Origin: an uncultured Methanoregula sp.
GTDB lineage: Archaea > Halobacteriota > Methanomicrobia > Methanomicrobiales > Methanospirillaceae
Direction: 5' to 3'
DNA: 64,000 nt
Assembly: GCA_964592875.1 (NCBI GenBank)
Contig: CAZQGG010000009.1
Span: forward strand, 2,514-66,513
The position numbers were made by a program, and so were the translations under genes. The notes beneath the pieces were generated by a model. The model saw only the letters and a list, made by a program, of their open reading frames with translations, searched no databases and had not been told where the DNA came from. Positions 3,668 to 40,236 of this stretch are shown here, piece by piece (position 1 is the first letter of the stretch; each line of letters opens with the position of its first letter).

Positions 3668-6600
3668 TGGCCTTTACCCCGGTAACAAGGGTGCTCTTAT
3701 CGGACCGGAGGGTCACTCCCATGATCCGCTGGGCTGCATCGATCATCGGCTTTCGTAAGGAGACGATGACGAACTGGGAGTTGGGGGCAAGGTCCGTGAC
3801 CATGGAAGCGATCCGCTCCACATTTGCCCCGTCGAGCGACATGTCCACTTCATCAAAGGCATAGAACGGTGCGGGGATGTAGTGCTGGATCGAAAAGATG
3901 AAGGCGAGCGTGGTGAGCGACTTCTCTCCGCCGGAGAGGGAGTTTAAGAGGTGCACCTTCTTGTCCCGGGGCTTCACGGCAAACGTCATCCCGCCGGCAA
4001 ACGGGTTCTCCTCGTTCTCCAGGACCAGGTTGCCACTCCCGCTCGTGAGACGGGCGAAGATCTGGCGGAAATTCGTATCGATAGCCTTGAAGGCGGTCGT
4101 GAAGGCCTCGAACTTCATCTTCTCGAACGTCTCGATCCGCTCGATTAAGGTCTCCCGCTCGGTGGAGAGGGTCTCTTTCCGCTCCGTCCGCTCGTTCACC
4201 TGCCGCTCCACCTTCTCATACTCCTCGATGGCGAGCATGTTGACGGCACCGATCTTGCGTAATGCCCCGTCCGCTTCCGCGATCTTCCCCTCGATCTCCG
4301 AGAGCGTCAGGGTCGTGTCCATCTCCCCGACCTGCTGCTTCAGCATCTCGATCTCGATACCGAGCGTTTTCGCCCGCTCCTCGATGGCGGTGAGCTGGTT
4401 CGTGATCCGCTCACGCTCGGCATCGAGCTTCATCAGTTTGAGTTCGGATTCCTGGATGTGCTTCGTCACTTCGCTGCGTTTTCCCCGCAGCTCGTCGAGT
4501 TCCCCGCTGAACTCCTTCTGCCGTTCCTCCAGCACTGCGATCTGGGCCTTGTGACCGGCAATCTGCTCGTTCGAACTGGCGATCTCCCCGTCGATCTGCC
4601 GGTTGCGCTCGTCCTGCCGGTTGCGTTCCTCGGCGAGTTCAGTGAGGCGGGCCGTGAAGTGCTGGCGTTCCCGCTGGGCATCGTTGACATCCGCTTCCTT
4701 GTTTCGAAGCCGGCGCTCGAACTCCTCGATCTCTTTCCTCTTCTTCTCCATCTGCTCGGTGAGGGCAGGGATGTTGGTGTCATCAAGGCGCTTCTTGATG
4801 GCATCCATCTCGCCGTTCAGCACGCCAATCTCAGCGGTGATCGCGTCGAGACCGGTCTCAAGGGAGGTCAGTTCCGAGGCGCCGTTCTTTGTCTCTTCCT
4901 GCTGGCGGGCGACCGCAGATTCGATGGTCTGCTTCTCGACCGTGATCGCATCGAAGCGCCGGGAGAACTCTTCGGTGAACATCCCGAACCGGGCCACCTT
5001 CTGGTCGATCTCGTTCCTTGCGCCCCGTTTCGCATCCACCTCTTCCGTGAGCCGCTGGACCGCAGCTTCGATGGTCGCAGCCTCACCCTGCAGCTCGCCG
5101 AGACGCGAACGGAGGCGGATGATCTCGTCATCCACGGCGGCACCAAACCCGCGGGGACCGGCCTGCTTCCGGGCCGAACCGCCGGTCATCGCCCCGCTCC
5201 GCTCGATCAGTTCGCCTTCGAGCGTCACCATGCGGTATTTCCCGATCAGTTTCCGTGCCCGTTCCAGCGTATCGACAACCACCGTGCCGCCCAGCACCAC
5301 CGAGAAGGCCCGGTCGTATTTCGGGTCGTAGTCGAGCAGGTTGACGGCATAGTCGATGACGCCCGGTTCTTTCAGGGGAGGCAGCTGCGGGGGTTTGAGC
5401 TTGTTTAAGGGGAGGAGGGTGACTCTCCCGAGCCGCTCCTCCTTCAGGTACCGGATCGCGTCGGCAGCGATCTGGTCGGTGTCGCAGACCACGAACTGGA
5501 GCTTGTTGCCGGCGGCAGTATTCAGGGCCACCGAGTACTCGGCCGGAGCCTTGGCAAGATCGGCGATGGTCCCGTGCACGCCTTCCATTGCGGCAACTGC
5601 CTCGATGGCCCGACCGCCGGACTCCCCCCGGGCCTGCTGGGCTGCTTCGAGCCGGAAGACGTCCTGCTCGGCAGAACGGATCTCCTTCTGGAGACGTTCC
5701 TGCGTAGTGCGCTGGGCAAAGAGGCTTCCTTCCAGTTCGGAGAGGTTCCGGTCAAGGGCCTTCTTCTCGGCTGCGAGATCCTCGATGCTCTTCCGGCTGT
5801 CGGAGAGCTGGGTCTGCTTTGCGGCATACTCCTCGTCCAGCTGACGGAGCAGGCCGGTGAGCCGTTCGAGCTCGGAGGTCCGCATCCGGCTCTTCTCGAT
5901 GAGGATGTCCTGCTGGTGGAGGATCTCCGACCGGCTGCCCTTCTTCACCTCGATCTCCTTGATGAGGTTGAAGAGCTTGTCGCGGGCGCCTTCCGTGTCC
6001 TCGCTGTGCTGCTTTAGCTCGGTCTCGACCTTTTCCAGCTGCGCCTTTGTGGTCGCGACCTCCATCGCGATATTTGTCCGGTCAATGGAGAGGGTCCGGA
6101 TCTGGTCGGTGCATTCCGTCACCCGGGCCTCGGCCCGTTTCGTATCCATGTAGACGCGGTTGATCGCCTCGAGATTCGTCTCCTTCTCCTTCTTCATCCG
6201 GACGATCGCCTGCTCGGCTACCTTGATCCCGCCCTTCGCCTCTTCGAGTTCAGCGATCAGCTTCAGGTAGTCGGCCCCGCTCTTCTTGTTGATCAGGTCG
6301 TCGATGTCGGTTAAGTCCGCCTTGAGGTACGAGAGTTCGTTCTCCTCGATGCCCCGGTCCGACGCGATCCGGGTGAGCTGGATACGGTGATCTTCGGTTG
6401 AGCGCTGGAGGGAGACGAACTCCTTCTCCCGCTCGTGGAGCTGGGCGGCGGAGCGGCAGTTCTGGTAGTACGTGAGCTCGTCCTGCCACTTCTTGTATTC
6501 GAGGGCATGGGTTCGCTCCCGTTTCAGCTCGCCCGCCCGCCGGGTCAGTTCGAGCAGGAGCAGTTCTTCCCGCTCGATCCGCTCCCGGACAATATCGAGT

Positions 6601-11707: not shown

Positions 11708-11870
11708 GGTTCGCCACAGTATCTTTTTTTACCAGAAACTCCCGTTACTTTCCATAAGGATAGTAAGGGATGAACCGGACCGTATGCCTTATTCAAAGGA
11801 ATACTTCCAAAGCAGGTGAAGACAGGGAGCACGAGGTCCTTCGCAGTGCTCCCCTCAGTGAAAACAAACG

Positions 11871-27705: not shown

Positions 27706-27794
27706 TTCACTAGTTTCTGTGCGGGGCGACAAAAAAAGGTGCTGATGTGGATTTATACCGGATTTATCAGGCCGGCCGTACTACATTCCTGAAT

Positions 27795-28286
27795 ATGGAA
27801 GAGATGAAATTCACGATCAAGAAACTACCGGCCCGGACGGTGGTTGGCATTGCCCGCCGCACCTCCAACGCGGAGGCGGCCGGTGTGATCCCGGGCTGCT
27901 GGCAGGAATTTTTCTCCCAGAATGCTGCAGCAAAGATCCCGAACCGGGCAGTCCCCCCGGTCATGTATGCCGTGTACTCGGATTACGAGAAGGACTGGAC
28001 AAAACCGTACTCCTACCTGCTCGGGTGCGGAGTGACAAAGGCAGTGACGGTTCCCGAGGGCATGGAGGTCCGCCAGATCCCGGCGCAGACCTACGCGATC
28101 TTCCGGGCCAGAGGGAAGATGCCGGACGAGATCGTCGGGGTCTGGGCCAACATCTGGGCATCCAATCTCCCGCGGACGTACACCTACGACTTCGAGCTGT
28201 ACGACCAGCGGTTTACGCGGCCGCAGAATAAGGAGGCCGACATCTACGTGGCGATCGAGCCCAAGGACGACATGGTGCCGATCTGA
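27795..28286 (+). CDS. GyrI-like small-molecule-binding (effector) domain protein
   Basis: VVGIARRTSN, YAVYSDYE, YLLGCGV, IPAQTYAIF, YTYDFELYD; start uncertain. Confidence 0.85.
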   Translation: MEEMKFTIKKLPARTVVGIARRTSNAEAAGVIPGCWQEFFSQNAAAKIPNRAVPPVMYAVYSDYEKDWTKPYSYLLGCGVTKAVTVPEGMEVRQIPAQTYAIFRARGKMPDEIVGVWANIWASNLPRTYTYDFELYDQRFTRPQNKEADIYVAIEPKDDMVPI

Positions 28287-28304
28287 TCGGCCCCTTTTTT
28301 TATA

Positions 28305-28326
28305 AATAACACATTGTTAACTGTGA
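28305..28326 (-). repeat. 22-bp boundary site TCACAGTTAACAATGTGTTATT (21/22 identical to 38539-38560)
   Basis: Reverse complement of 28305-28326 compared base by base with 38539-38560. Confidence 0.85.
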
Positions 28327-28384
28327 TTTTTCTAAAAATTAAATTTAGAAATGGACTTGATTCACAATTTAAAATAATAGATAA

Positions 28385-29251
28385 TTATTGATCTTTAAAC
28401 ATCGCGATGTTAATAGAGAATTGTTTTTTCTCCATTTGCTTACCGATGGAATTTTGGAATTGAAGGGCAACTTGAAATTCTGGGATGTTATCCGGATGAA
28501 AAAATCGTTCTACGTGTCCAACAAGCAATTCCGCATCACAAATTTTGATACTAACTTTCTGTTTTGGACCAAGTATAGAAATTCCCTTTTGAACAATTGA
28601 GTGGGAATCGAACATTCCACTAATGATTGGAAAATCACTTGGATTAGAGTTAATTTTAATGTTCTGAGCAATTCCAAAACCAATATTTTCAATAATTAGG
28701 TCAATAATTGCAGGATTGTCAGTTTTATCGATTTGTAAATATGCAATAAGGTCGGGTTTCGTTTGAGCATCAAATAGAGCTTGATTTGTTCTAACCAAAT
28801 CTTGGGTTAGCAAAACATATAGGAATGTTATAACTGCAACTAAAAGACTCGGAATTGCCATAATTGCAGTAGTTATGTACTGAGTATCATTGGAATGTTG
28901 AGCAAAAATCCATACAAACCAAAAAATATACCCAAATGTCGCAATACCAAATCCCAAATTTACTAAAATTCTTCCAAAATTTGAAGAATTAAAGAGATAT
29001 TGGATTTTACTTTTTGTAATGTTTTCAAATGATGGTGATTGTGAATCACTTGGGTTAGAATTAGAGTCATTATATTCAGATCTGCTAATCAGAAAAACAA
29101 CCAATGCACCCATTAGAAGGCAGATTACGTATATAGTTACATATTTTGTCCAATTCTGAAAATCTGTTAATACACCGTACATAATTGGGTAAAACAAACT
29201 AGCTAATGCTAAAACAACGGTGTACGATGTAAGACGATTGATGTGTACCAT
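28385..29251 (-). CDS. AT-rich hypothetical membrane protein (likely horizontally acquired)
   Basis: 288-aa ORF, four TM-like helices then a soluble beta-rich domain; base composition visibly far more AT-rich than the flanks. Confidence 0.75.
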   Translation of the reverse strand: MVHINRLTSYTVVLALASLFYPIMYGVLTDFQNWTKYVTIYVICLLMGALVVFLISRSEYNDSNSNPSDSQSPSFENITKSKIQYLFNSSNFGRILVNLGFGIATFGYIFWFVWIFAQHSNDTQYITTAIMAIPSLLVAVITFLYVLLTQDLVRTNQALFDAQTKPDLIAYLQIDKTDNPAIIDLIIENIGFGIAQNIKINSNPSDFPIISGMFDSHSIVQKGISILGPKQKVSIKICDAELLVGHVERFFHPDNIPEFQVALQFQNSIGKQMEKKQFSINIAMFKDQ

Positions 29252-29274
29252 AAAAGGGTTACATCATTTACAAG

Positions 29275-29850
29275 TTATGAAAGTATGGATTTTGTTAAAA
29301 ATCCCGGCACCAGCGCCAGTACCACGCAGACGGCAACCGGGATGACGAGGTTGTCATCAACCGGGGAGAGGAGCTCGATCACCCCGGCCACAACCGCAAT
29401 GGCAACAGCGCCCGGCAGCGTGAGGAACGGGAGCAGGACGAGGATTGTTACGAGGATGCCGGCGATCGTTCCCTCCCATGACTTGCCGTTATGGATCCGG
29501 GTCCGGCCGAACCGCACCCCCACGATCGTGGTCACGCTGTCAAGTACCGCAAGGGTGACGAGGGCCGGTACAGAGATCGTGACGGGGAAGAGGATCACGC
29601 AGGCCAGCGCACTGACCGCAAAATAGAGCGCTCCCCGGCCGGGCAGGCGATCGCCCCGGTCGAAGGCCTCGACAAGCGGCGAGAAGAGGGGGAGCCGGTG
29701 ACCGCGGAGGATCAGATCAACCATCACGATCCCGATGAAGAGGCCCCCGGCAAGGATCGCGACCGCAGCCGACTGGCCTGCCACAAGAACCATGCCCGCA
29801 ACAGCAAGGCCGAAGAGGAGGTGCACCAGCTGGCGGACGAGTTCCTTCAT
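29275..29850 (-). CDS. SEC59/DGK1/VTE5-family (cytidylyltransferase-like) membrane kinase
   Basis: MKELVRQLVHLLFG, LDSVTTIVGVRFG, GKSWEGT, ELLSPVDDNLVIP. Confidence 0.85.
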   Translation of the reverse strand: MKELVRQLVHLLFGLAVAGMVLVAGQSAAVAILAGGLFIGIVMVDLILRGHRLPLFSPLVEAFDRGDRLPGRGALYFAVSALACVILFPVTISVPALVTLAVLDSVTTIVGVRFGRTRIHNGKSWEGTIAGILVTILVLLPFLTLPGAVAIAVVAGVIELLSPVDDNLVIPVAVCVVLALVPGFLTKSILS

Positions 29851-29970
29851 GGAAGAAGTGTACGCTGAACCGGGGATAATAACCTGCGGTATGAGATCCG
29901 ACGCGGACCCGGGGCATCCACATGCAGAATCCTCAACACATATCTGGGATGAAATACGAGAGACTATCAT

Positions 29971-30702
29971 ATGAACCGCCAGCAGATCCGCACGACAATT
30001 CTTCTCCTCTCGTTGTTGCTCATGTCGGTAACGTTTGTGTACATCTCCCCGTACATCATGATGACGGGACTCACGAACGGCGTCATTGCCGCAGGACTCA
30101 TCTTCTGGATCATCGCGTTTTTGCTCACCCTCGTCATCGGCCGGGCATTCTGCGGGTACCTCTGCCCCATGGGTGCCGAACAGGAGATCATTGACAGGGC
30201 GCTGAAGATCCCGCTCCGTACCGTCCCATACCTCAGGTACCTCAAGTACCTTCTCGCGGTCTTCTGGGTTGGCGGGGCCGTCTTCCTTGCCGCCGCAGCC
30301 GGGACGCTTGTTCTGAACCCGCTCTTCGGCATCGGCAGCGGGCTTCCCCCGTGGCAGGCCGGTGCATACCTCTTCCTCTATGCCATGACCCTCGGGGTCT
30401 TTGTCCTCGTCCTCATCCTCGGGCGGCGGGGCATGTGCAATTATCTCTGCCCGATGTCCGTGGTCTTCATCGTAATCACGAAACTGAAAAACGCTCTGAA
30501 GATCCCTTCGCTTCACCTGGTGGCCGAGCCGGATGAGTGTATTAAATGCAAAAAGTGTACCGCATCCTGCCCCATGAGCCTGCCCGTGCAGGAGATGGCA
30601 GGCGCAAAGGAGATGCAGAACCCGGAGTGTATCCTCTGCGGCAACTGCGTGGATGCCTGCACCAAAAACGTGATCCGGTTCGCGTGGCGCTGGAACCGCT
30701 GA
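29971..30702 (+). CDS. Membrane 4Fe-4S binding protein (NapH/MauN-like polyferredoxin)
   Basis: GRAFCGYLCPMG, CNYLCP, CIKCKKCTASCP, CILCGNCVDAC. Confidence 0.9.
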   Translation: MNRQQIRTTILLLSLLLMSVTFVYISPYIMMTGLTNGVIAAGLIFWIIAFLLTLVIGRAFCGYLCPMGAEQEIIDRALKIPLRTVPYLRYLKYLLAVFWVGGAVFLAAAAGTLVLNPLFGIGSGLPPWQAGAYLFLYAMTLGVFVLVLILGRRGMCNYLCPMSVVFIVITKLKNALKIPSLHLVAEPDECIKCKKCTASCPMSLPVQEMAGAKEMQNPECILCGNCVDACTKNVIRFAWRWNR

Positions 30703-30732
30703 AATTTTTTTTATTTTTTTACAATACCGTGG

Positions 30733-31491
30733 TTACAGTACCGAGGACTCTTTCCCGGTCTCCTGGAACGTTCCTGCCGGCAGCGTGATGACGAAGCGGG
30801 CACCTTTCTCCGGTTCCCCGTTCTCGATGATGGAAAGGCCCGTGATGCCGAGGATCTCGCGGGCAAGGAAGAGTCCCCAGCCCACGCCCTTCCCGAATCC
30901 CCGCTCGAAGATCCGTTCCTTGTCCTTTACCGGGATACCGACACCGTCGTCCTCAATGATCATCTCGGCATGCGGCCCGACAATGGTTGCGGTGATCCGG
31001 ATCTCCGAGGGTTTCCCGGCATGCTGGCGGGTATTTTCAAAGATATACTGCAATGCCCGGTCAAAATGGGGATCGGCAAGGATGATCATCTGCCCGGCCG
31101 GTTCGGCAATGCGGAGGCTTGTGCCACTGCAGGCTTCGCGGGCCCGGTTCGTGGCATTGGTCAGGTTCTGCCACCGGGGGGGTTCAACGGCAAGGTTCTG
31201 GTAATCCTTGGCAAACTGGAAGAGCCGCCGGATCTTGTCGGCCGCCTGCTTCTCCCGGTCAAGGAATACTTTTGTTTTTTCATCCTCAAGGGTCATCGAG
31301 AGGAGCTCGTTGTACCCGACTATCGCGGTGAGCTGGTTCAGGACATCGTGCCGGGTCACGCTCCCGACTAGCTGGAGTTTCTTTTCCAGAAATGCGATCT
31401 TTTCGTTGAGCCGGGCGATCTCCTCTTCGGGATTGGCGGGGGCGGCACTGCCGGGTATTTCCTGTGATCGTTCGTTGTTTTCCATCGACAT
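30733..31491 (-). CDS. Sensor histidine kinase (cytoplasmic; HisKA + HATPase)
   Basis: VTRHDVLNQLT, IFENTRQH, DDGVGIP, IFERGFGKGVGWGLFL, GARF. Confidence 0.92.
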   Translation of the reverse strand: MSMENNERSQEIPGSAAPANPEEEIARLNEKIAFLEKKLQLVGSVTRHDVLNQLTAIVGYNELLSMTLEDEKTKVFLDREKQAADKIRRLFQFAKDYQNLAVEPPRWQNLTNATNRAREACSGTSLRIAEPAGQMIILADPHFDRALQYIFENTRQHAGKPSEIRITATIVGPHAEMIIEDDGVGIPVKDKERIFERGFGKGVGWGLFLAREILGITGLSIIENGEPEKGARFVITLPAGTFQETGKESSVL

Positions 31492-31634
31492 CCCCCCCTG
31501 CCCGTCCCGCGAGACCGGTGCGGGACGCTCAAAACAAGTTAAGAAATCTATATCCGGTCTGGTTATTGAGGGTTGTTATTTCTCGGCACTGTGCACCACG
31601 TTAAAAAACTTCAAACACCTAACTCCATTTTGAT

Positions 31635-32624
31635 ATGCAGCACCGCACGCTCACGTTTTCCCGGAACGTCTTTTTGCCCCTGACAACCGTGTGCCGGAAC
31701 CGGTGCGGGTACTGCTGCTTCCGGACGCCCGTGCAGGAGGGATGTGTCATGGCGCAGGCCGACGTTGAGAAGACCCTGCGCGACGGGGCCGCGCTCGGCT
31801 GCACGGAAGCACTCTTCACGTTCGGTGAACGGCCGGAGAACGAGCCGGGCTTTTCTGAGATGCTCGCCCCGCTCGGCTACGCCACGATCCTCGATTACTG
31901 TACGGCGATGTGCAAAGCGGCAATTGCCTGTGGCATCCTCCCGCACACGAATGCCGGCATCCTCACGTACGAAGAGATGGAACGGCTCCGGCCCGTGAAC
32001 GCGAGCATGGGCCTGATGCTCGAAACAACAGCAGAGATCCCGGCGCACGCGACTTCTGTTGGGAAATCCCCGGATGTCCGGCTCGCGATGATGGAGGACG
32101 CGGGAAAACTGAAGATCCCGTTCACGACCGGCCTTTTGCTCGGGATCGGCGAGACCATGGCCGACCGCGAGGACTCGCTCTTTGCGATCCGCGACCTCCA
32201 CAAACGCTACGGCCACATCCAGGAGATCATCATCCAGAACTTCTGCCCAAAGCCCGGCACCCCGCTTGGCGCGAGCGCGGTCCCGACAACGGACGAGGTT
32301 GCGGCCACGATCCGGATGGCGAAAGATATTCTCCAGCCGGACATTTCTGTCCAGATCCCACCCAACCTGATCGATGCGAGCCTGCTTATCGCGTGCGGCG
32401 TGGACGATCTCGGCGGCATCTCCCCGCTCACCATCGATTACGTGAACCCCGAGCACCCGTGGCCGGCGTTCGATGAGCTCCAGCGCATTGCCGGGAACGC
32501 CCATTTAGTCGAGCGGCTCTGCATCTACCCGCAGTACATTGAACGCGGGTGGTTCGACCCCGGCATGCAACCCCTGATAAACCGGCTCGCACAAACAGTA
32601 CAGACAAGGAGCGAAGACCTGTGA
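31635..32624 (+). CDS. cofG: FO synthase subunit 1 (radical SAM)
   Basis: TFSRNVFLPLTTVCRNRCGYCCF, PHTNAG, FTTGLLLGIGE, HIQEIIIQNF, DYVNPEHPWP. Confidence 0.95.
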   Translation: MQHRTLTFSRNVFLPLTTVCRNRCGYCCFRTPVQEGCVMAQADVEKTLRDGAALGCTEALFTFGERPENEPGFSEMLAPLGYATILDYCTAMCKAAIACGILPHTNAGILTYEEMERLRPVNASMGLMLETTAEIPAHATSVGKSPDVRLAMMEDAGKLKIPFTTGLLLGIGETMADREDSLFAIRDLHKRYGHIQEIIIQNFCPKPGTPLGASAVPTTDEVAATIRMAKDILQPDISVQIPPNLIDASLLIACGVDDLGGISPLTIDYVNPEHPWPAFDELQRIAGNAHLVERLCIYPQYIERGWFDPGMQPLINRLAQTVQTRSEDL

Positions 32625-33586
32625 AACAGAAAGCCCTGCTCTATACCGGCAAAGCCAAGTCCGTGTTCCGCACGGATGTGAAGGGACAGTTCATCGTGGA
32701 GTTCCGCGACGACATCACCGCGTTCGATGGTGGAAAGAAAGATGTCCTGAAAAACAAGGGCAGCTACAACGCGGAAGTCTCGGCATTTCTCTTCGAGTAT
32801 CTCGAAAAGAACGGCGTTGCGACCCATTTTGTGAAGATGCTCGACCCGCGCCGGATGGTGGTGCGGGAACTCTCGATGATCCCGCTCGAAGTGATCGTGA
32901 GAAACGTTGCCGCCGGGTCCATTGTGCGGAACTACCCGTTCAAGGAAGGAACGAAGCTCAGCCCGCCCATCATCGTGATCGATTACAAGGATGATTCACG
33001 GCACGACCCGATGCTCAACGACGAGCTGATCGTGGCGCTGAAGCTCGCGACCGCAAAGGAACTTGCGGAGATCAAGAAGATCGCCCTGAAGATCAATGCG
33101 CTGCTTGTCAAGCTCATGGCTGCGCAGGGCATCACGCTCGTGGACTTCAAGATCGAGTTCGGCCGAAGCGGGAAAAAGATCTGCCTTGGCGACGAGATCA
33201 GCATGGACTCGATGCGCCTCTGGGACAAAAAGACGAACGAGTCGCTCGACAAGGATGTGTACCGGTTCGAGAAGGGCGATGTGATGGCCACCTACAACCG
33301 GGTGGCGAAGAGGATCACAACGAAAGCCGCCGCTGCATCCGCAAAGAAGGCTGCGGCAAAAGTCCCGGCTAAACCTGTGAAGAAACCGATGAAGAAAGCA
33401 CCGGTAAAGGCCAAAGTCCCGGTGAAAAAACCGGCGAAGAAAGTTCCGGCCAAGAAACCAGTAAGCAAGGTTCCGGTCAGGAAACCCGTTACAGCAAAAG
33501 CGGCTGCAAAGAAGGCGCCCGTAAACATTGTTGCCAGAAAACCGGTGAAGAAACCGGCCAAAAAATCTTCTGCAAAAACCCGCTGA
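32621..33586 (+). CDS. purC: SAICAR synthetase with C-terminal Lys/Ala/Pro-rich extension
   Basis: LYTGKAKSVF, EFRDDITAFDG, IPLEVIVRN, LVDFKIEFG, GDEISMDSMRLWD, DKDVYR; GTG start overlaps the cofG TGA. Confidence 0.96.
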   Translation: MKQKALLYTGKAKSVFRTDVKGQFIVEFRDDITAFDGGKKDVLKNKGSYNAEVSAFLFEYLEKNGVATHFVKMLDPRRMVVRELSMIPLEVIVRNVAAGSIVRNYPFKEGTKLSPPIIVIDYKDDSRHDPMLNDELIVALKLATAKELAEIKKIALKINALLVKLMAAQGITLVDFKIEFGRSGKKICLGDEISMDSMRLWDKKTNESLDKDVYRFEKGDVMATYNRVAKRITTKAAAASAKKAAAKVPAKPVKKPMKKAPVKAKVPVKKPAKKVPAKKPVSKVPVRKPVTAKAAAKKAPVNIVARKPVKKPAKKSSAKTR

Positions 33587-33646
33587 TCACAAAAACTATT
33601 GTGCCTGATGTACAATGTATCCAAAACTACGGGGCAGACACTGATC

Positions 33647-33928
33647 ATGACCGACTCAGCAATGGACGAAGCAGAGATGCTCAAATGGGCAAAGGGGTAC
33701 GCACACAAGCAGGGCTGGGACCTCAATCCGGATGAGACGCAACTGGGGACCGTGATCCGGGGCCTGGTGCGCAACAAGACCAAGTTCGGCCACCCCTACT
33801 GCCCCTGCCGGCTCCGGAGCGGGGATGAGGAGAAGGACCGGGCCATCGAATGCCCGTGCGTATACCACAAGGAAGAGGTGGCAAACCAGGGATTCTGCCA
33901 CTGTCACCTGTATTTCAAGAAGCCCTGA
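33647..33928 (+). CDS. Ferredoxin:thioredoxin reductase catalytic subunit-like protein
   Basis: YCPCR, ECPC, CHCHLY (CPC/CPC/CHC pattern). Confidence 0.9.
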   Translation: MTDSAMDEAEMLKWAKGYAHKQGWDLNPDETQLGTVIRGLVRNKTKFGHPYCPCRLRSGDEEKDRAIECPCVYHKEEVANQGFCHCHLYFKKP

Positions 33929-33938
33929 TCTTTTTTTT

Positions 33939-34448
33939 ATGTCCAATGTTCTGCCGCAGCCGGACCTGTGCGGTCTTGCGCCGGTCACCGGGCCGGACCC
34001 GCGTGTGCTGATTCTCGGGAGTTACCCCAGTGTTCTCTCACTGGCGCACCGGGAATATTACGGCAACCCGAAGAACCGGTTCTGGGCCGTGATGGAAACA
34101 ATTCTTGGGGTCCCGGCCGATCTGCCGTACGCTGATCGGACCCTGCGGCTCACAAACAACAATATTGCGCTCTGGGACGTTGTCGCACGCTGCGAGCGGC
34201 CGGGCAGTGCGGACAGCCGGATAAAAGATCCGGTGCCAAACGATCTTGCCGGATTTTTTTATGAGCACCCGACCCTCCGGCTCGTTGCGCTGAACGGTGG
34301 CACGGCCGGCCGGCTCTATCACAAACTCGCTGAAGTCCCGGGCCTCGCTTCTGTTACGCTGCCGTCAACGAGCCCAGCGTACGCGGCGATGAGGTTTGAG
34401 GAGAAAGTCCGGGCGTGGCGGATCATTGCCGGGCACCTGAAGACCTGA
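33939..34448 (+). CDS. UDG-superfamily DNA glycosylase (Mug-like/DNA-deoxyinosine glycosylase)
   Basis: LILGSYPSVLSL...YYGNPKNRFW, IALWDV, ALNG, LPSTSPA. Confidence 0.88.
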   Translation: MSNVLPQPDLCGLAPVTGPDPRVLILGSYPSVLSLAHREYYGNPKNRFWAVMETILGVPADLPYADRTLRLTNNNIALWDVVARCERPGSADSRIKDPVPNDLAGFFYEHPTLRLVALNGGTAGRLYHKLAEVPGLASVTLPSTSPAYAAMRFEEKVRAWRIIAGHLKT

Positions 34449-34984
34449 ACAGCCCGGCCTCAGGAACGCGAAGATCCGGATGAGCAGAACCTCCGGGGAA
34501 CGAGGTGCTGCAAAACGCTCGATTCCGGGGATTCCCCTGAATTCTCCGACGTGCGAGTGGTTCATCAGAACCACGAGGATGAGAAGAATCCGAAGGATTC
34601 TTCGACGTAAAACCCGATCACACCCATAAACGGCCACCAGACCCCGCCGGTCCGATCCGGACCCCCTGCCATGAACTGGAACCCGTTTTTGCCACCGTTC
34701 GGCCAAAAGAATGTGGCTAAATATGACCTCTCATCTCCGGCGTAAAAACAGGGATTTTACCCGGATTATTCCCCCGTTTTCCGGAATTATTCCCTCTGGT
34801 TCCGGAAAAGTGGTACAACGGAGCCCGCAGGAGGCCCGGATTAGTGTATCCCCAAAATGAAGGGGTGCTCCGACGTGCGACAGGTCATCAGACCTGGAGC
34901 AGGAGAGGAAACCGACAGGTTTCTTCGATTGCGGAGATAATCGGGGAACAACCCATACAGAGAGATGAGTGCCCCGACATCCCC

Positions 34985-35368
34985 TCACACCGTCACCGGC
35001 CCGGAGACCGCACTTCCCTTATCAGCAAGCACCTGCCCGTGCCGGTCGATCTCAACAATCCCGTCCGCAGTTACGCAAAAGAACCGCCACGTGCCGTGCT
35101 TGGACCGAAGCCAGAGCTCGCGGGTGAGGGCCACATCCCGCATGATCGCCCGGAGCTTTCTGATATCCTCACAGAACTCATACGCGATATCGGCCAGCGA
35201 CGCGAGGATCCGTGGCGTGAACCTCACGCGGACGAACGCACCCGTGGTTGTGGCATCGATGGTGAAATGATAATAGGTCTCCGGGCCCAGAACCGCCACC
35301 TGGACCTTCCCCCGCTGTCGTGCAATCGCGATCGCATCCGGCAGCGCCCGGTGCGGACGCGGGGTCAC
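34985..35368 (-). CDS. Methanomicrobiales-type small basic hypothetical protein, possible PD-(D/E)XK-like fold
   Basis: AIAIARQRG, FVRVRFT, RELWLRSKHGTWRFF; start uncertain (GTG 35368 or TTG 35383). Confidence 0.55.
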   Translation of the reverse strand: MTPRPHRALPDAIAIARQRGKVQVAVLGPETYYHFTIDATTTGAFVRVRFTPRILASLADIAYEFCEDIRKLRAIMRDVALTRELWLRSKHGTWRFFCVTADGIVEIDRHGQVLADKGSAVSGPVTV

Positions 35369-35403
35369 CGCACCGCCCCGCAATAAAAAAAATCCGGTCG
35401 CCG

Positions 35404-35534
35404 CCGGGAGGTTTTGCGATCGGGCCTTCCGGATTCTGCTGTCATGTAAAAACGAAAGATATTTTGTATTAAATATTGGAATGATGCCTCTGGATCAATG
35501 ACAGAACCACGGGGTTGCAGGATCTAAAAAAGAC
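35404..35534. repeat. ~130-bp structured direct repeat, copy A
   Basis: Aligns over its whole length with 36230-36354 (e.g. GGATCAATGACAGAACCACGGGGTT identical). Confidence 0.9.
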
Positions 35535-35549
35535 CCTCGATGCTCCCGC

Positions 35550-35900
35550 TTAGTTCCGGGCCTCTTCGCTCTTGAGGATCTCCCGGATCTCATTTTTCAG
35601 GCCGGGCAGCTTGGCGGTGGCGTTGTCCCAGAGGATCGTATCCTTGATGTTAAAATACCCGTGAGTGAGGACATCGCGGAACCCGGCAACCTTCTTCCAG
35701 TCCGTGCCGGGGTACCGTGCCTTGAGTTCGTCCGGCAGTTTCTTGATGGCTTCGCCAATCACCTGGAAATTCCGGATCACGGCATCCCTGCGCCTTCGAT
35801 CCTTTGAAAATTCCTCGATCGTGATCCCGGCAATGTCCTCTTCGATGTTGCCGATGGACTCAAGGATATCTTCAAGGTACTGGAGTTGCGTCCTACGCAT
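35550..35900 (-). CDS. hepT: HepT-like HEPN RNase toxin (DUF86)
   Basis: DAVIRNFQVIGEA, RX4HXY motif RDVLTHGY. Confidence 0.92.
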   Translation of the reverse strand: MRRTQLQYLEDILESIGNIEEDIAGITIEEFSKDRRRRDAVIRNFQVIGEAIKKLPDELKARYPGTDWKKVAGFRDVLTHGYFNIKDTILWDNATAKLPGLKNEIREILKSEEARN

Positions 35901-36177
35901 ACACGACCTCTCTCATGATGTACGGCTTCAGCCGTTTCTTGATTGCACCTTCCATGATGAGATCAACCCGGCGCCCGAAGAGGTCTTCAAGATAAAACTT
36001 GCAGTCCATATAGTTGTCGAACGTCTCCTGTCCTTCGCGGAACGAGACGAGAACGTCCACATCGCTGTCCGCCCGCTCCTCTCCCCGTACGAACGAGCCG
36101 AAGATGCCGATGGTTGCAATGCCGAACCGTTTCTTTAAGGCCGGTTCGTGCTGCCGGAGGAGACTGAGCGGATCCAT
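35893..36177 (-). CDS. mntA: Minimal nucleotidyltransferase antitoxin
   Basis: GIFGSFVRGEERADSDVD (GSX10DXD), LEDLFGRRVDL; 8-bp overlap with the toxin. Confidence 0.92.
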   Translation of the reverse strand: MDPLSLLRQHEPALKKRFGIATIGIFGSFVRGEERADSDVDVLVSFREGQETFDNYMDCKFYLEDLFGRRVDLIMEGAIKKRLKPYIMREVVYA

Positions 36178-36229
36178 ACGATCAGTACGTGAATTTGTAT
36201 GTTCATTACTATTAATCCATTGACCACAG

Positions 36230-36354
36230 CCGGAAGGTTTTGCATACGGGCCTTCCGGATCCTGCTGTCATGGAAAAAAGATATTTTGTCTTAAATAGTG
36301 GCGTGATGCCTCGGGATCAATGACAGAACCACGGGGTTACAGGATCCAAAAGAC
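36230..36354. repeat. ~125-bp structured direct repeat, copy B
   Basis: Internal inverted repeats CCGGAAGG/CCTTCCGG, GGATCCTG/CAGGATCC, CTGTCAT/ATGACAG. Confidence 0.9.
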
Positions 36355-36409
36355 TATCGGAGTGCCGAACCGGTGAAGGGACATTTCATCGTAGCGGGAA
36401 GCCGGTAGC

Positions 36410-36530
36410 ACAAAAAATATTAAAAAAATCAAAAATTTTGAAAATAATTTTGTAAGAAAATTTCCGGCACTATCGGTTCACAAAAAATTTTTCAAAAAAA
36501 ATTTAGAAAAAACGGATTCGCTAATAAAAA
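36410..36530. other. Phased A/T-tract region (probable intrinsically bent DNA)
   Basis: A4-A8 tracts at about 36412, 36422, 36431, 36441, 36457, 36482, 36494, 36507, 36526. Confidence 0.6.
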
Positions 36531-36597
36531 CCAGGACCAGACCCATGTATATTAACAACATTTAAAATAAATCGGGTAGTACGGGGGATTTCTGACA

Positions 36598-38466
36598 ATG
36601 CCATCTTCTGATGCTGTTATTCCGGTTGCTCTTGCCATGTATCATTCACCAAGACGGTATGCTTTACTAGTTGGATCTGGTATATCACGGGATACACGTA
36701 TTTTTACAGCTGGAGAAATTACCGATGATCTCATCCGAAAGATTGCTGGTAAAACTTTTAAAGGCAATCAGAAACCGCAAGATTGGTACAATGAAACCAA
36801 GGGTCACTCACCCACATTTACGGGGCTCCTTAAAGAATTTGCACACACTCCTGATGATCGCACAGCAATACTCCGTCCCTATTTCGAACCGATTGAGAAC
36901 GGAAAACCGGTGAAAGTTGAGCCAACACAAGCACATGTAAGCATTGCCCGTTTGGTGAGAGATGGCATTATCTCAATGATTCTTACGACAAATTTTGATC
37001 CTCTTCTCGAAGAAGCAATCAGAAAAGAAACTGGAAAAGCCCCTGTAGTCATTACGCGTGATAGTGATCCGCGATTAATGGAAATCGCAGGAGATCATTG
37101 TCGTATCGTGATGATAAATGGTCGATATCCTAATACAGATTTAAAATTGACCCCTGAGGACCTTGCGGAGTATGTTGACAAGGATGCTGAAATTGCAAGT
37201 TATCTTGATCGAATCTTTTCAGAATATGGGCTTCTCATCTGTGGATGGTCTGGGGAGCATGATTTGGGATTGGTAAAAATTTTAGTTGCCGAACGACCTA
37301 CCCGAAGATTTTCCATTTTCTGGTGTAACCGTGATAGTCCTGAAAAGATTCCGGTTGAGATAAGGTCCAAACTTGCCATATCAATTATCAGAATAGAATC
37401 TGCCAATGAATTTTTTAGCGATTTGGAATCTAGGATTGAACTTTTGAAACGCCATGAAAGAATTTCTCCGCTCACCGTGGAAAGCGCTGTCAAAAAGGTC
37501 AAGGAGGCTTTAAGAGAGCCAAGGCCAGAATTGACTCTTTCAGATCTTGTTCACGAAGAAACTGAACGTGTTTTAACAGAAATTAATCGTTCCGATATTT
37601 TTCCGGAAGGGAATATTGATGGGAAAGCTTGTTTTAAAAGCAGGATAGAAGAGTTAGAGCGTGTAGCCTCACCACTTGCGGCAATGGTAGCAACTATTGC
37701 GTACTACGATGATGGGAATTATACAGATTTGATTACAGAAACTATTGATCGGTTAATCAATCTCCCCGTTATTGGGATTATTTTAACTGAAACACATATT
37801 TCAAACAGACGCTCTGAAATAAACCAATACGTAGACTATTTCCAGCGCTTAAGGCTGTATCCAGCTCTACTCACAGTATATGCATCAGGTATTGCAGCAG
37901 TGCATAAAGGAAATTTTACTAATCTATCAGTAATTCTGGAAAAACCCCGAATGCGGCCGTCCGCCTATAATTCAATTGAACCTGTCGCTTTTTTCGAAAG
38001 AGTGAATATGTGGTACGTTACTGAGACTTATGAGCAATGGATAGTTGATTTTAGCCTCGAACGTTTTGGGAAACGCGGGGATGCTTATTATTATATTACT
38101 AAGGTAATCCAAGGAATTGTCAATCCTCTTATCCCTCATGAGCATTATTATAATGCATCATTTGATATTTTCGAATGCCTCTTTGGTATTTGTTATGTCT
38201 CACAATCACCTATTGATGATCTCAGACGTTCGTATGTTTTATTATCGAGAGTGAAGGTTCTGACAGCAGGATTAGATCAGACAAGGCAAATGCGATTGCC
38301 CTCATCGGTTCTTGAATATTTCCAAGGAATCTCCCCAAAGATATCAAAATCTACGTTCTTTGGGGGAAGTCCTATACAATTCCAAAAGACTCTTGTAAAA
38401 TATTCTGAAAATCAAGGCATTACACCTCCTGAAACGGGAATTTCAGTTCCTAAGGGGGTACTATGA
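36598..38466 (+). CDS. SIR2-like (SIR2_2) domain protein, AT-rich, candidate defence effector
   Basis: YALLVGSGIS, EPTQAHVSIARLV, ILTTNFDPLLEEA, GLLICGWSG; long helical C-terminal region. Confidence 0.85.
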   Translation: MPSSDAVIPVALAMYHSPRRYALLVGSGISRDTRIFTAGEITDDLIRKIAGKTFKGNQKPQDWYNETKGHSPTFTGLLKEFAHTPDDRTAILRPYFEPIENGKPVKVEPTQAHVSIARLVRDGIISMILTTNFDPLLEEAIRKETGKAPVVITRDSDPRLMEIAGDHCRIVMINGRYPNTDLKLTPEDLAEYVDKDAEIASYLDRIFSEYGLLICGWSGEHDLGLVKILVAERPTRRFSIFWCNRDSPEKIPVEIRSKLAISIIRIESANEFFSDLESRIELLKRHERISPLTVESAVKKVKEALREPRPELTLSDLVHEETERVLTEINRSDIFPEGNIDGKACFKSRIEELERVASPLAAMVATIAYYDDGNYTDLITETIDRLINLPVIGIILTETHISNRRSEINQYVDYFQRLRLYPALLTVYASGIAAVHKGNFTNLSVILEKPRMRPSAYNSIEPVAFFERVNMWYVTETYEQWIVDFSLERFGKRGDAYYYITKVIQGIVNPLIPHEHYYNASFDIFECLFGICYVSQSPIDDLRRSYVLLSRVKVLTAGLDQTRQMRLPSSVLEYFQGISPKISKSTFFGGSPIQFQKTLVKYSENQGITPPETGISVPKGVL

Positions 38467-38538
38467 GAAGTGTCAAATCCGCGGAATTATGACATTGCTA
38501 TGTCGGGATTGATTTTAATTATAATCTCTTTTGTCTTT

Positions 38539-38560
38539 TCACAGTCAACAATGTGTTATT
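38539..38560 (+). repeat. 22-bp boundary site TCACAGTCAACAATGTGTTATT
   Basis: 21/22 identical to the reverse complement of 28305-28326. Confidence 0.85.
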
Positions 38561-38568
38561 AAAAAAAT

Positions 38569-40236
38569 TTACCGGTCCCTCCGGAACTTCAAAAAGATCA
38601 CGTGATAGATCGCATAGAACCCGCAGAGCACGGCCGCGGTGTACCCGGCAATCGCCAGCCACGTGATCTGGGGCGGCAGCGTGATCGCGGAGACCTGCAG
38701 TACGAGCGACGACCCGACCACGAGCGAGGCAACCACGATCCCCATCATCATCTTGTCGGCCGCCGAATCCAGCGCCATCGTCAGTTTCTGGAGATCGTTC
38801 TCCACGATCTCCAGCTTGAAGGACCCGGTCGAGAGCCGGCGCAGCATCAGGTTGAGATTCCGCGGCATATCTAAGAGGGCATCCGCACCCTCAAGGAGTG
38901 CCATCGAAGCCCGCTTGACATAGCCCGCGGAGAACGTGTTGGTATCCGCGAGTTTGGTTAAGTACGGCGTCACTTCCTCGCCGAAATTGAACTTCGGATC
39001 GAGCCGGACACCAACATCGAGCACCATCATGAAGACTTTTAAGAGCAGCATCAGGTTCAGCGGCACCTTCAGGTTATAGCGCCGCATCGAGTCCGTGAGC
39101 TCGGAGACCACGAGCCCGAAATCCATCTGCGCAACCCCGCCTCCGCCTCCCGAGAAGTCGTGCATCATGACGTACAGGTCGTCCCTGAGCGCCTCGCGAT
39201 CCTCTTCCTTGATCTCGATGCCAAAGCCCTCGAGCGAGCGGATCATCAGCTCGATGTTGTCCGTGGAGAGCGCAAAGAGCAGGTTGATGAAGTTCTGGCG
39301 CTTCTCAGGCCTGAGGATGCCCACGATGCCAAAGTCTAAAAAGACGATGTCGCCTTCTTTTGTCACGAGCAGGTTGCCCGGGTGCGGGTCGCCGTGGAAG
39401 AACCCGTCCTCGAAGATCATCTTGAGATACGCGTGGAACCCGCGGATACCAATCGCGTGCGGTTCGACCCCCATCTCCGTGATCGCTTCGACCGCATCGA
39501 TCCGGACCCCCTCGACAAATTCCATGACCAGGAAGTGGGGGGTCGTGTACTCCCAGTAGATCTTCGGGAAGCGGATGCCCGGGACGTTCTGGAAGTTTCT
39601 CGCCATGCGGTCAGCGTTCCGGGCTTCACGGGTGAAGTCGAGCTCTTTTAGGATCTGGTGGGCGAAATCGTCCACCATGCCGGCCGGGTTGTAGATCCGG
39701 CTCTCGGGAAACATCGTCTCGATGCGCTCGGCCATGGACTGGAGGATGCCGATATCCAGCTCGATGATCTCAGGAATGCCCGGGCGCTGGATCTTGAGGG
39801 CAACCTTGGTCCCGTCCTTGAGGTAGGCCCGGTGCACCTGGCCGATCGATGCGGCTGCAACGGGCGTCTCCTCGATATCGCAGATGAAATCTTCCCAGTT
39901 CGGACAGTTCTCTTCGATCACCGCCATGACTTCTGAGAAGGGGACAGGTTTGGCATGGTCCTGTAATTTTTTGAGCTGCTCGATCATCTCGGGCGGCAAA
40001 AGTTCGGTCCTTGTACTCGCGATCTGCCCGAACTTCACAAAGGTGGGCCCGAGTTCCTCCATCGCGAGCCGTATCCGTTCGTAGGTGCTGGCACCTTCCG
40101 CGGCCTGACCAGAGCCGGGAAGTTTGAACCGTACCGATCCGGGAAAGAGCTTCTCAAGGCCTATACTCAATCCATACTTGCTCAGGATGTCCAGAATCTG
40201 AGCGTACCGCACGATACGGGTGACCATGGGGTACAT
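38569..40236 (-). CDS. ABC1/AarF/UbiB-family atypical kinase
   Basis: LGPTFVKFGQ, AAASIGQVHRA, VALKIQRP, FFHGDPHPGN, DFGIVG. Confidence 0.95.
   Translation of the reverse strand: MYPMVTRIVRYAQILDILSKYGLSIGLEKLFPGSVRFKLPGSGQAAEGASTYERIRLAMEELGPTFVKFGQIASTRTELLPPEMIEQLKKLQDHAKPVPFSEVMAVIEENCPNWEDFICDIEETPVAAASIGQVHRAYLKDGTKVALKIQRPGIPEIIELDIGILQSMAERIETMFPESRIYNPAGMVDDFAHQILKELDFTREARNADRMARNFQNVPGIRFPKIYWEYTTPHFLVMEFVEGVRIDAVEAITEMGVEPHAIGIRGFHAYLKMIFEDGFFHGDPHPGNLLVTKEGDIVFLDFGIVGILRPEKRQNFINLLFALSTDNIELMIRSLEGFGIEIKEEDREALRDDLYVMMHDFSGGGGGVAQMDFGLVVSELTDSMRRYNLKVPLNLMLLLKVFMMVLDVGVRLDPKFNFGEEVTPYLTKLADTNTFSAGYVKRASMALLEGADALLDMPRNLNLMLRRLSTGSFKLEIVENDLQKLTMALDSAADKMMMGIVVASLVVGSSLVLQVSAITLPPQITWLAIAGYTAAVLCGFYAIYHVIFLKFRRDR

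Follow-up and report, generated by a model that had tools for sequence, protein, structure and literature searches.

Why should two unrelated AT-rich genes in one archaeal chromosome be followed by nearly the same short sequence? The question is raised by the DNA analysed here, a 64-kb window on one contig (C9) of a Methanoregula genome of 2.87 Mb and 54% GC. The original prediction had noticed a common 22-mer behind the genes of a 288-amino-acid (aa) membrane protein and a 622-aa SIR2 protein, and had proposed that single genes are captured by a tyrosine recombinase in the manner of integrons or dif modules. We confirmed the two sites, TCACAGTTAACAATGTGTTATT at 28326-28305 (minus strand) and TCACAGTCAACAATGTGTTATT at 38539-38560 (plus strand), which agree at 21 of 22 positions and lie 58 nt and 72 nt, respectively, after the stop codons. 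When up to 3 mismatches are allowed the window contains these 2 matches, versus 0 in 100 dinucleotide shuffles. Both sites lie between convergent genes, exactly where the GC content steps from 31-40% to ~57-60%, and the two proteins are indeed unrelated to each other. A rigid block of ~42 bp, here called E, has the 22-mer as its core and is a Methanoregula-specific right-hand end module of cargo cassettes. As had been proposed, horizontally acquired single-gene cassettes have it at their 3' boundary, and it represents a genus-wide family of sites at which mobile, exchangeable units end. The original observation was partly confirmed, and its interpretation is partly supported.

The consensus of E reads TTTTT-N5-wTTCA-CAGTYAACARTGTGTTATT-(T)AAAAAAA. 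In an information profile of 68 copies, conservation is confined to positions -15 to +27, with nothing outside: an invariant core of 19 bp, T at -15 to -11 in 48-57 of the copies, and A at +20 to +25 in 51-61 of them, the latter forming a T-run for the convergent gene. Read as sequence, E has the features of a putative archaeal oligo-T terminator, with at least five T on the coding strand soon after the stop. One sub-variant carries CCGGAAAAA in place of the A-run directly after ...GTGTTATT (L013, L021, L089, L116, L163, L166, L179 and, on the minus strand, L171); because the A-run is swapped in this way, the sub-variant suggests that the true edge of the element lies right after TTATT.

This genome contains five clear copies of E, one degenerate copy and one on contig C7 that was recovered with a looser pattern, or 5-7 copies as against 0-3 for a reversed-pattern control. 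E was found in 77 of 108 Methanoregula genomes, with ~250 matches (~50 for the reversed control) and 0-10 copies per genome, and in 0 of 24 genomes from other genera of the order. A scan of GTDB (596 Gb) returned 67 exact matches, ~44 of them in Methanoregula(ceae); the remainder are at chance level (~35 estimated) and lack the extended E flanks. In IMG/VR there were 6 matches, of which 5 look like chance. The sixth, L103 (IMGVR_UViG_3300050014_001317), carries two E copies arranged tail to tail at 4333-4391 with an A/T run in common, and, about 7 kb away at 11808, the core of the terminal inverted repeats described below. Although filed as viral, L103 consists of DNA of the Methanoregula type and represents a provirus or else a chromosomal island filed in error; a viral origin of E was rejected.

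Across the genus, E separates DNA of different composition. GC averages 0.395 on the upstream side and 0.503 on the downstream side (n=87), and the upstream value is below 42% for 58 of the 87 copies, such that two thirds of the copies close a low-GC island. Same-strand low-GC open reading frames (ORFs) stop a median of 30 nt before E, and the cargo is oriented with E in ~28 cases and against it in 12. Tandem pairs exist, but the paired sites envisaged for each cassette were not borne out, as a second E lies upstream of only ~7 of 93 copies.

Within the window, island 1 comprises the whole inserted cassette (28295-29298, minus strand; ~1.0 kb, 31% GC). It contains the membrane-protein ORF (28385-29251, minus strand; 33% GC) and ends in E copy 1 (28295-28338, minus strand), which consists of T5 (28338-28334), TCA-CAGTTAACAATGTGTTATT with the core at 28326-28305, and then TATAAAAAAA; the AT-to-GC step follows directly. 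Island 2, the AT-rich SIR2 cassette (36412-38568, plus strand; ~2.15 kb, 39% GC, left edge approximate), contains the ORF of the SIR2_2-domain protein (36598-38466, plus strand) and ends in E copy 2 (38527-38568, plus strand), formed by a T-rich tract, TCA-CAGTCAACAATGTGTTATT (38539-38560) and AAAAAAA (38561-38567). The convergent ABC1-kinase gene has its stop at 38569, directly after this copy.

The genome of a relative, G034, is syntenic over 27.1-40 kb of the window and lacks both islands. Between the last aligned flanking bases at island 1 there are 84 bp in G034 versus 1,048 bp here, and the island 2 site measures 39 bp in G034 versus 4.15 kb here, the extra stretch being 34,449-38,568. 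Other relatives have different fillers in the same two spacers. At the left junction of island 1 (29275-29298, minus strand), the translated host gene (29275-30516) ends in ...LVPGFL|TKSILS* here versus ...FVPAFL|SFAA* in G034. As the differing tails show, island 1 starts within the last codons of the host gene and supplies it with a new tail of six codons and a stop (TKSILS*). In their sequence the window islands show themselves as units of cargo plus E, lacking integrase and a left-end motif (see below), in very short convergent spacers that are empty in G034. We also sought strain-level empty sites by way of identical flanking proteins, and none is on record; a metagenome scan for the joined flanks of island 1 gave two matches, both in unrelated GC-rich bacterial sequences.

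The behaviour of E cassettes elsewhere is that of mobile units. Each of six cassettes examined in this genome closes a low-GC island of 0.6-2.2 kb, with the exception of that on contig C4, where E closes a longer region of lower GC (~3.4 kb), and the proteins encoded by the six show no relation to one another. Four cassette families allowed five pairwise comparisons across species, which revealed cassette and E in common at 85-92% identity amid unrelated flanks; the homology starts at a discrete point 147-443 nt upstream and stops at +24 to +28 in every comparison. At one locus that G025 and G104 share at 87-89% identity, G104 has one extra unit of 804 bp, a methyltransferase ORF between two E copies. 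G010, G071 and G073 have both flanking genes in common and keep E against the right flank, while 6.6, 1.4 and 1.1 kb of differing DNA, respectively, lie between those flanks; the 6.6-kb region of G010 is of mixed content and holds no recombinase gene. The cassettes are dispersed singly in intergenic spacers and do not gather at one platform. These comparisons show E to be the right boundary of discrete units that have been gained, stacked (cargo-E-cargo-E) and exchanged, and that are found at unrelated loci.

A second motif, cTAGGCTCATATAGAATAAGTCACAG (extended form cTAGG-CTCATATAGAATAAGTCACAG), marks the opposite, GC-to-AT transition, and we refer to it as the left-end motif, LE. There are 40 matches to LE in 32 genomes, versus 0 for the control. 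Of 93 E copies, ~24 have an LE upstream in the same orientation and 1 has one on the opposite strand; ~75% of E copies have no LE, and most cassettes have no recognisable left-end site. Where contig C7 of this genome is compared with G108, both flanks are syntenic and LE and E are retained, yet unrelated cargo fills the interval, 0.38 kb here versus 2.0 kb (AAA_21 and DUF4276) in G108. Units of LE and E without cargo also exist (~80 bp), and a fused LE/E "empty attB" (GAATAAGTCACAGTYAACA...) was not found. LE and E both contain TCACAG, and the boundaries of moved units fall outside that hexamer.

Both motifs recur within larger elements, which have the order left terminal inverted repeat (TIR-L), tyrosine integrase, Rep-like protein, LE, cargo, E and right terminal inverted repeat (TIR-R). 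The only full element of this genome (~3.45 kb) lies on contig C4 at 305,006-308,456 (L176 6007-9457). Its features are the integrase (305080-306342; 420 aa, PF00589 at 6e-15), the Rep-like gene (306917-307906; 329 aa), whose stop abuts LE (from 307906), E (308346-308364) and, just right of E, TIR-R (about 308380-308456). A 135-aa ORF comes between the integrase and Rep-like genes in order, and a 63-aa basic ORF that runs on the opposite strand forms the cargo separating LE from E. The order from integrase to E recurs in G106, with an integrase that is 85% identical, and partial or related versions are present in G018, in L171 and, as traced through Rep homologues, in three metagenome contigs (L177-L179). 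Homologues of the integrase are found in G106, L171 and L177-L179. L080 is a unit of TIR-L, cargo and E that has neither integrase nor rep gene.

The terminal inverted repeats are statistically significant (scores of 45-51 versus 23±4 for shuffles), extend over ends of ~50 bp, and finish in TT-Y-AAAAAAA, the same sequence as the outer edge of E. They were found in the full element and in a ~500-bp derivative in L171 (about 1400-1930), an integrase-free unit between the cores ACTTTGTCTTTTT and AAAAAGACAAAGT that looks like a derivative of this element family of the kind known as miniature inverted-repeat transposable elements. No TIR core is present in the window or beside the E copies of its cassettes, and the left end of island 1 resembles TIR-L in no more than a weak GTAAATG match, which we disregarded. 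The E region is unrepeated within 16 kb upstream beyond chance 10-11-mers, so an att direct repeat was not found there and an attL-type repeat of E to the left of the integrase was discarded. The element ends contain no tRNA genes or Rfam families, and a metagenome scan for the predicted circular TIR-R/TIR-L junction had 0 matches, a weak negative given that it was an exact-match search.

The Rep-like protein is without a Pfam match and belongs to a family of 47 homologues, none of them named. The motifs H160xH162 and Y215xxxY219xxK222 (HxH and YxxxYxxK) are invariant in 24 homologues. The AlphaFold2 model has a mean predicted local distance difference test score of 81, and its top Foldseek matches are SIRV1 ORF119, a Helitron transposase and Reps of CRESS viruses, with no match to an HUH protein at E<=1e-3. 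From its motifs and model we classify it as a predicted HUH-type endonuclease of the Y2 class. Of the 15 genomes with a Rep-like gene, 13 have E, at ~4.1 copies versus ~2.0 in Rep-less genomes, and truncated Rep fragments exist beside LE. As to the integrase, a tyrosine recombinase, the kind of enzyme invoked by the original prediction, is encoded by full-length elements bearing the same site, but by neither window island. The absence of such a gene from the window, which had been stated beforehand, holds in a search with PF00589; the three tyrosine recombinases of this genome are on contigs C4, C5 and C19. The C19 gene product has a strong Phage_integrase match (4e-39), and C19 is one of a set of short low-GC contigs in this bin (C12, C14, C18-C24, C27 and C28; 1.3-3.5 kb, 25-40% GC) that may be unassembled fragments of further mobile DNA.

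The theme of the cargo is single-gene defence candidates, as judged from predicted protein families. The SIR2 protein of the window had been described as an orphan, which it is not: it matches Pfam SIR2_2 at 1e-9 and, over its full length, the PADLOC defence candidate PDC-S65 (9e-123), and it has homologues in 8 of 108 genomes at 34-61% identity. Elsewhere, a cassette with an FRG domain matches PDC-S15 and one with DUF4145 matches PD-T7-4, both in PADLOC, and further cargo includes small membrane proteins, a 62-aa basic protein and a methyltransferase. For the 288-aa membrane protein we obtained weak MFS/TctB-like transmembrane matches only and no PADLOC match, and homologues occur in only 5 of 108 genomes. 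These homologues (L189, L190/L191 and L192; genomes G103, G083, G094 and G009) occupy ~1-kb islands with a GC content of 27-38%, flanked by genes of normal GC; we found no E, LE or TIR in the islands. Because of these islands, not all small AT-rich single-gene islands of the genus can be associated with E.

We favour the reading that E is the right terminus of small mobile cassettes that belong to, or are derived from, a family of small integrating plasmid-like elements, and we put its probability at slightly less than 0.6. The outer edge of E (...GTGTTATT beside the A-run) would then be the joint for insertion into spacers that hold T-run/A-run terminators. The TIR ends share this terminal TT-Y-AAAAAAA, and for that reason the integrase encoded by the element, working in trans, would be the enzyme most likely to move the cassettes. 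Oligo-T on both strands, T5 before the core and T7 on the opposite strand after it, may serve to insulate the insert from its convergent neighbours. More tentatively, we propose as a possibility a hitherto undescribed, non-integron cassette system of Methanoregula, in which the enzymes of a small TIR-bounded integrase/HUH-Rep element would act in trans to insert, stack and exchange single-gene LE/E cassettes, many with anti-virus genes, in the terminator spacers of convergent gene pairs.

The main rival to this reading sees in E an expression or insulation module only, which would work as an archaeal terminator or insulator in both directions or be bound by a regulator or silencer, travelling with foreign genes without being a recombination joint; cassettes would be swapped by homologous recombination between LE and E, as happens with the boundary sequences of lambdoid phages. 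Such a module could well be built from the T5 found in 48-57 of 68 copies and the A7 tract (T7 on the other strand) after the core, and E mostly lies between convergent 3' ends, including those of ordinary host-type genes. Homologous recombination would also fit the cargo exchange seen where LE and E stay in place at one locus, the E-to-E insertion or deletion that distinguishes G104 from G025, and the conservation of E at one locus in three species. It does not readily account for cassette and E at unrelated loci: since the homology there stops just past E, in five of five comparisons, an insertion step that uses the E end appears to be needed. The invariant 19-bp core, moreover, far exceeds the needs of an oligo-T terminator, there are only 0-10 copies per genome, E is absent from other genera, and the window islands came with their E to sites at which relatives have none. 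Taking module and homologous recombination together, we consider this explanation unlikely. Still less probable in our judgement is that the E islands are decay remnants of full elements that integrated once and later suffered deletions sparing only the cargo end. E copies are certainly far more numerous than integrase and Rep genes, LE is missing at ~75% of them, truncated Rep fragments stand beside LE, and variable regions have mixed content, all as decay would predict. But removal of TIR-R exactly up to E would have to recur, island 1 fills what in G034 is a stop-to-stop gap of a few tens of bp and gives one gene a new tail, and the cargo-less LE-E units and the TIR-L...E units resemble defined variants rather than random remnants.

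There remains the integron-like or dif-module-like model of the original prediction, in which a Xer- or IntI-type recombinase acts on TYAACAA cores flanking each cassette. TTAACAA is indeed present at 29298-29292 and 36552-36558, 40 and 39 nt upstream of the respective ATGs, and the former falls exactly on the left junction of island 1. The latter, however, lies ~140 nt within AT-rich DNA, off the boundary of island 2, and the upstream core is missing from the other four cassettes of this genome. Among 21 non-redundant cassettes 4 have an upstream TYAACAA, against 0.57 expected; two of these are the window cassettes, in one the core belongs to the preceding E of a tandem pair, and in one it is part of TIR-L-like sequence. 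The degree of orientation bias (~28 versus 12) and the existence of tandem cassettes would suit an integron. The site itself does not: single-strand folds of ten E regions (-60 to +30) have z-scores of -1.24 to +1.01 and show only a 4-bp CACA/TGTG stem. A small dyad, TAACA-RTG-TGTTA, exists as described, but it pairs no more than 5+5 bp (4+4 for the C variant), and the profile of 68 copies shows no covariation between its positions 7 and 13; with the fold scores, this led us to reject E as a hairpin or attC. Nor is E dif-like, because it lacks 11-bp inverted arms with a 6-bp spacer and its outer arms agree at 4 of 11 positions in the consensus. A search for degenerate E at the 5' edges of cassettes gave same-strand scores equal to those of the opposite-strand control. 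With single dispersed cassettes in place of one platform, and no intI-type gene beside the arrays, this model is largely refuted, and we hold it to be very improbable. A Pfam family called "Integron-associated effector binding protein" (Cass2, GyrI-like) is matched by the gene convergent on island 1 (27747-28286, plus strand), but this reflects only how the family happens to be named and is no evidence for an integron here.

A number of observations weigh against our own reading of E as the right terminus of cassettes from integrating elements. No more than 15 of 108 genomes carry the Rep-like gene, versus 77 of 108 for E, so most cassettes have no resident mobiliser; that of the Rep-less genomes could be episomal and unbinned. 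The original prediction would have been contradicted by sites lying mainly next to core genes, and this is in part what we see: ~23% of E copies (about 20 of 87) follow normal-GC DNA, and the genes read beside them are of host type, such as PAS kinase, ProC and archaellin. The empty sites that it had suggested seeking are present in G034 for both islands, but the relatives with empty sites are only 65-83% identical and the junctions are not resolved to the base. The empty spacer of G034 has TTTTATT where the A-run of E copy 1 meets the flank; because this run is kept at the empty site, the A-run (a T-run on the plus strand) may be target-derived, and may be the host gene's own terminator. In the sequences searched there was no sign of an excised product, of a circle junction or of a fused empty site, and the left ends of cassettes have no second recombination site or att-type direct repeat, nor does E have the inverted-arm core typical of tyrosine-recombinase sites. 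The retention of E at one locus in G010, G071 and G073 implies that turnover can be slow. Finally, homologues of both window cargo genes occur in other species in low-GC islands without E.

Comparison with known systems helps to place the cassettes. Like integron cassettes, which have been described in Archaea (Ghaly et al. 2022, PMC9668308), they hold mutually unrelated ORFs of low GC, mostly one per cassette, and behind each ORF comes a conserved lineage-specific site; orientation is biased, tandems are possible, and the cargo is rich in defence or accessory genes. They differ in that E has 42 bp and no hairpin, whereas attC is an imperfect single-stranded DNA hairpin (R''-L''...L'-R', 57-141 nt), in that they are dispersed with no attI/intI platform and have a separate left motif, LE, and in that the integrase gene accompanies a Rep-like gene within an element bounded by TIRs. 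IS91/ISCR elements and Helitrons resemble the full element in encoding a Y2-type HUH protein (HxH, YxxxYxxK), in the two different ends of the cargo unit (LE abutting the rep stop, and E), in the lack of any visible target duplication and in TCACAG, which both ends contain. The Rep-like protein is nevertheless ~330 aa with no helicase, the element also has TIRs and a tyrosine integrase, and nicking at TCACAG fails to explain the boundaries, as moved units extend outside the hexamer.

Small integrative plasmids with a tyrosine integrase are known in Archaea, of the pRN/pSSVi/pXZ1 and pT26-2 types. The full element shares with them its small size and chromosomal location, the combination of integrase and replication protein, and variable cargo, but no tRNA target or att direct repeats were found, its ends are inverted repeats of ~50 bp, and its LE/E-delimited cargo slot also occurs alone at many loci. 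The pdif/Xer modules of Acinetobacter plasmids and the integrative mobile elements exploiting Xer (IMEX) are comparable as single-gene modules with short conserved sites at their bounds, moved in trans by a tyrosine recombinase that is the host's or foreign, yet E lacks the two 11-bp arms and 6-bp spacer of their 28-bp site, and paired sites rarely bracket the cassettes. Phage morons and lambdoid boundary sequences are comparable as self-contained promoter-gene-terminator units between genes and as conserved junction linkers; the units described here, by contrast, are scattered through chromosomes across the genus, and each ends at one fixed block of 42 bp, the outer edge of which coincides with the insertion boundary.

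The DNA that is extra at the island 2 site also holds, besides normal-GC sequence without assignment, a toxin-antitoxin pair of HepT (PF01934) and an MNT nucleotidyltransferase (PF01909) at 35553-36177 (minus strand). The pair is bracketed by direct repeats of ~125 bp with 87% identity (35403-35529 and 36229-36351), of which a third copy (74%) is on contig C6; the whole stretch is missing from the syntenic G034.

In the literature searched we found no account of the E motif or its element, and we regard both as previously undescribed. Little is known of how single accessory or defence genes move in Archaea, in which the first reports of integrons are recent. The present work provides a system defined in sequence (LE, E, a tyrosine integrase, a new HUH Rep-like family and TIRs), with substrates for the biochemistry of archaeal recombination, and it documents natural gain, stacking and cargo exchange of cassettes in an abundant methanogen genus of peat and wetlands. 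E can serve as a marker for new single-gene defence candidates, which would be the ORFs of unknown function just upstream of it. If the proposed trans-acting LE/E system is true, an archaeal genus as a whole would share a shuttle for defence genes.

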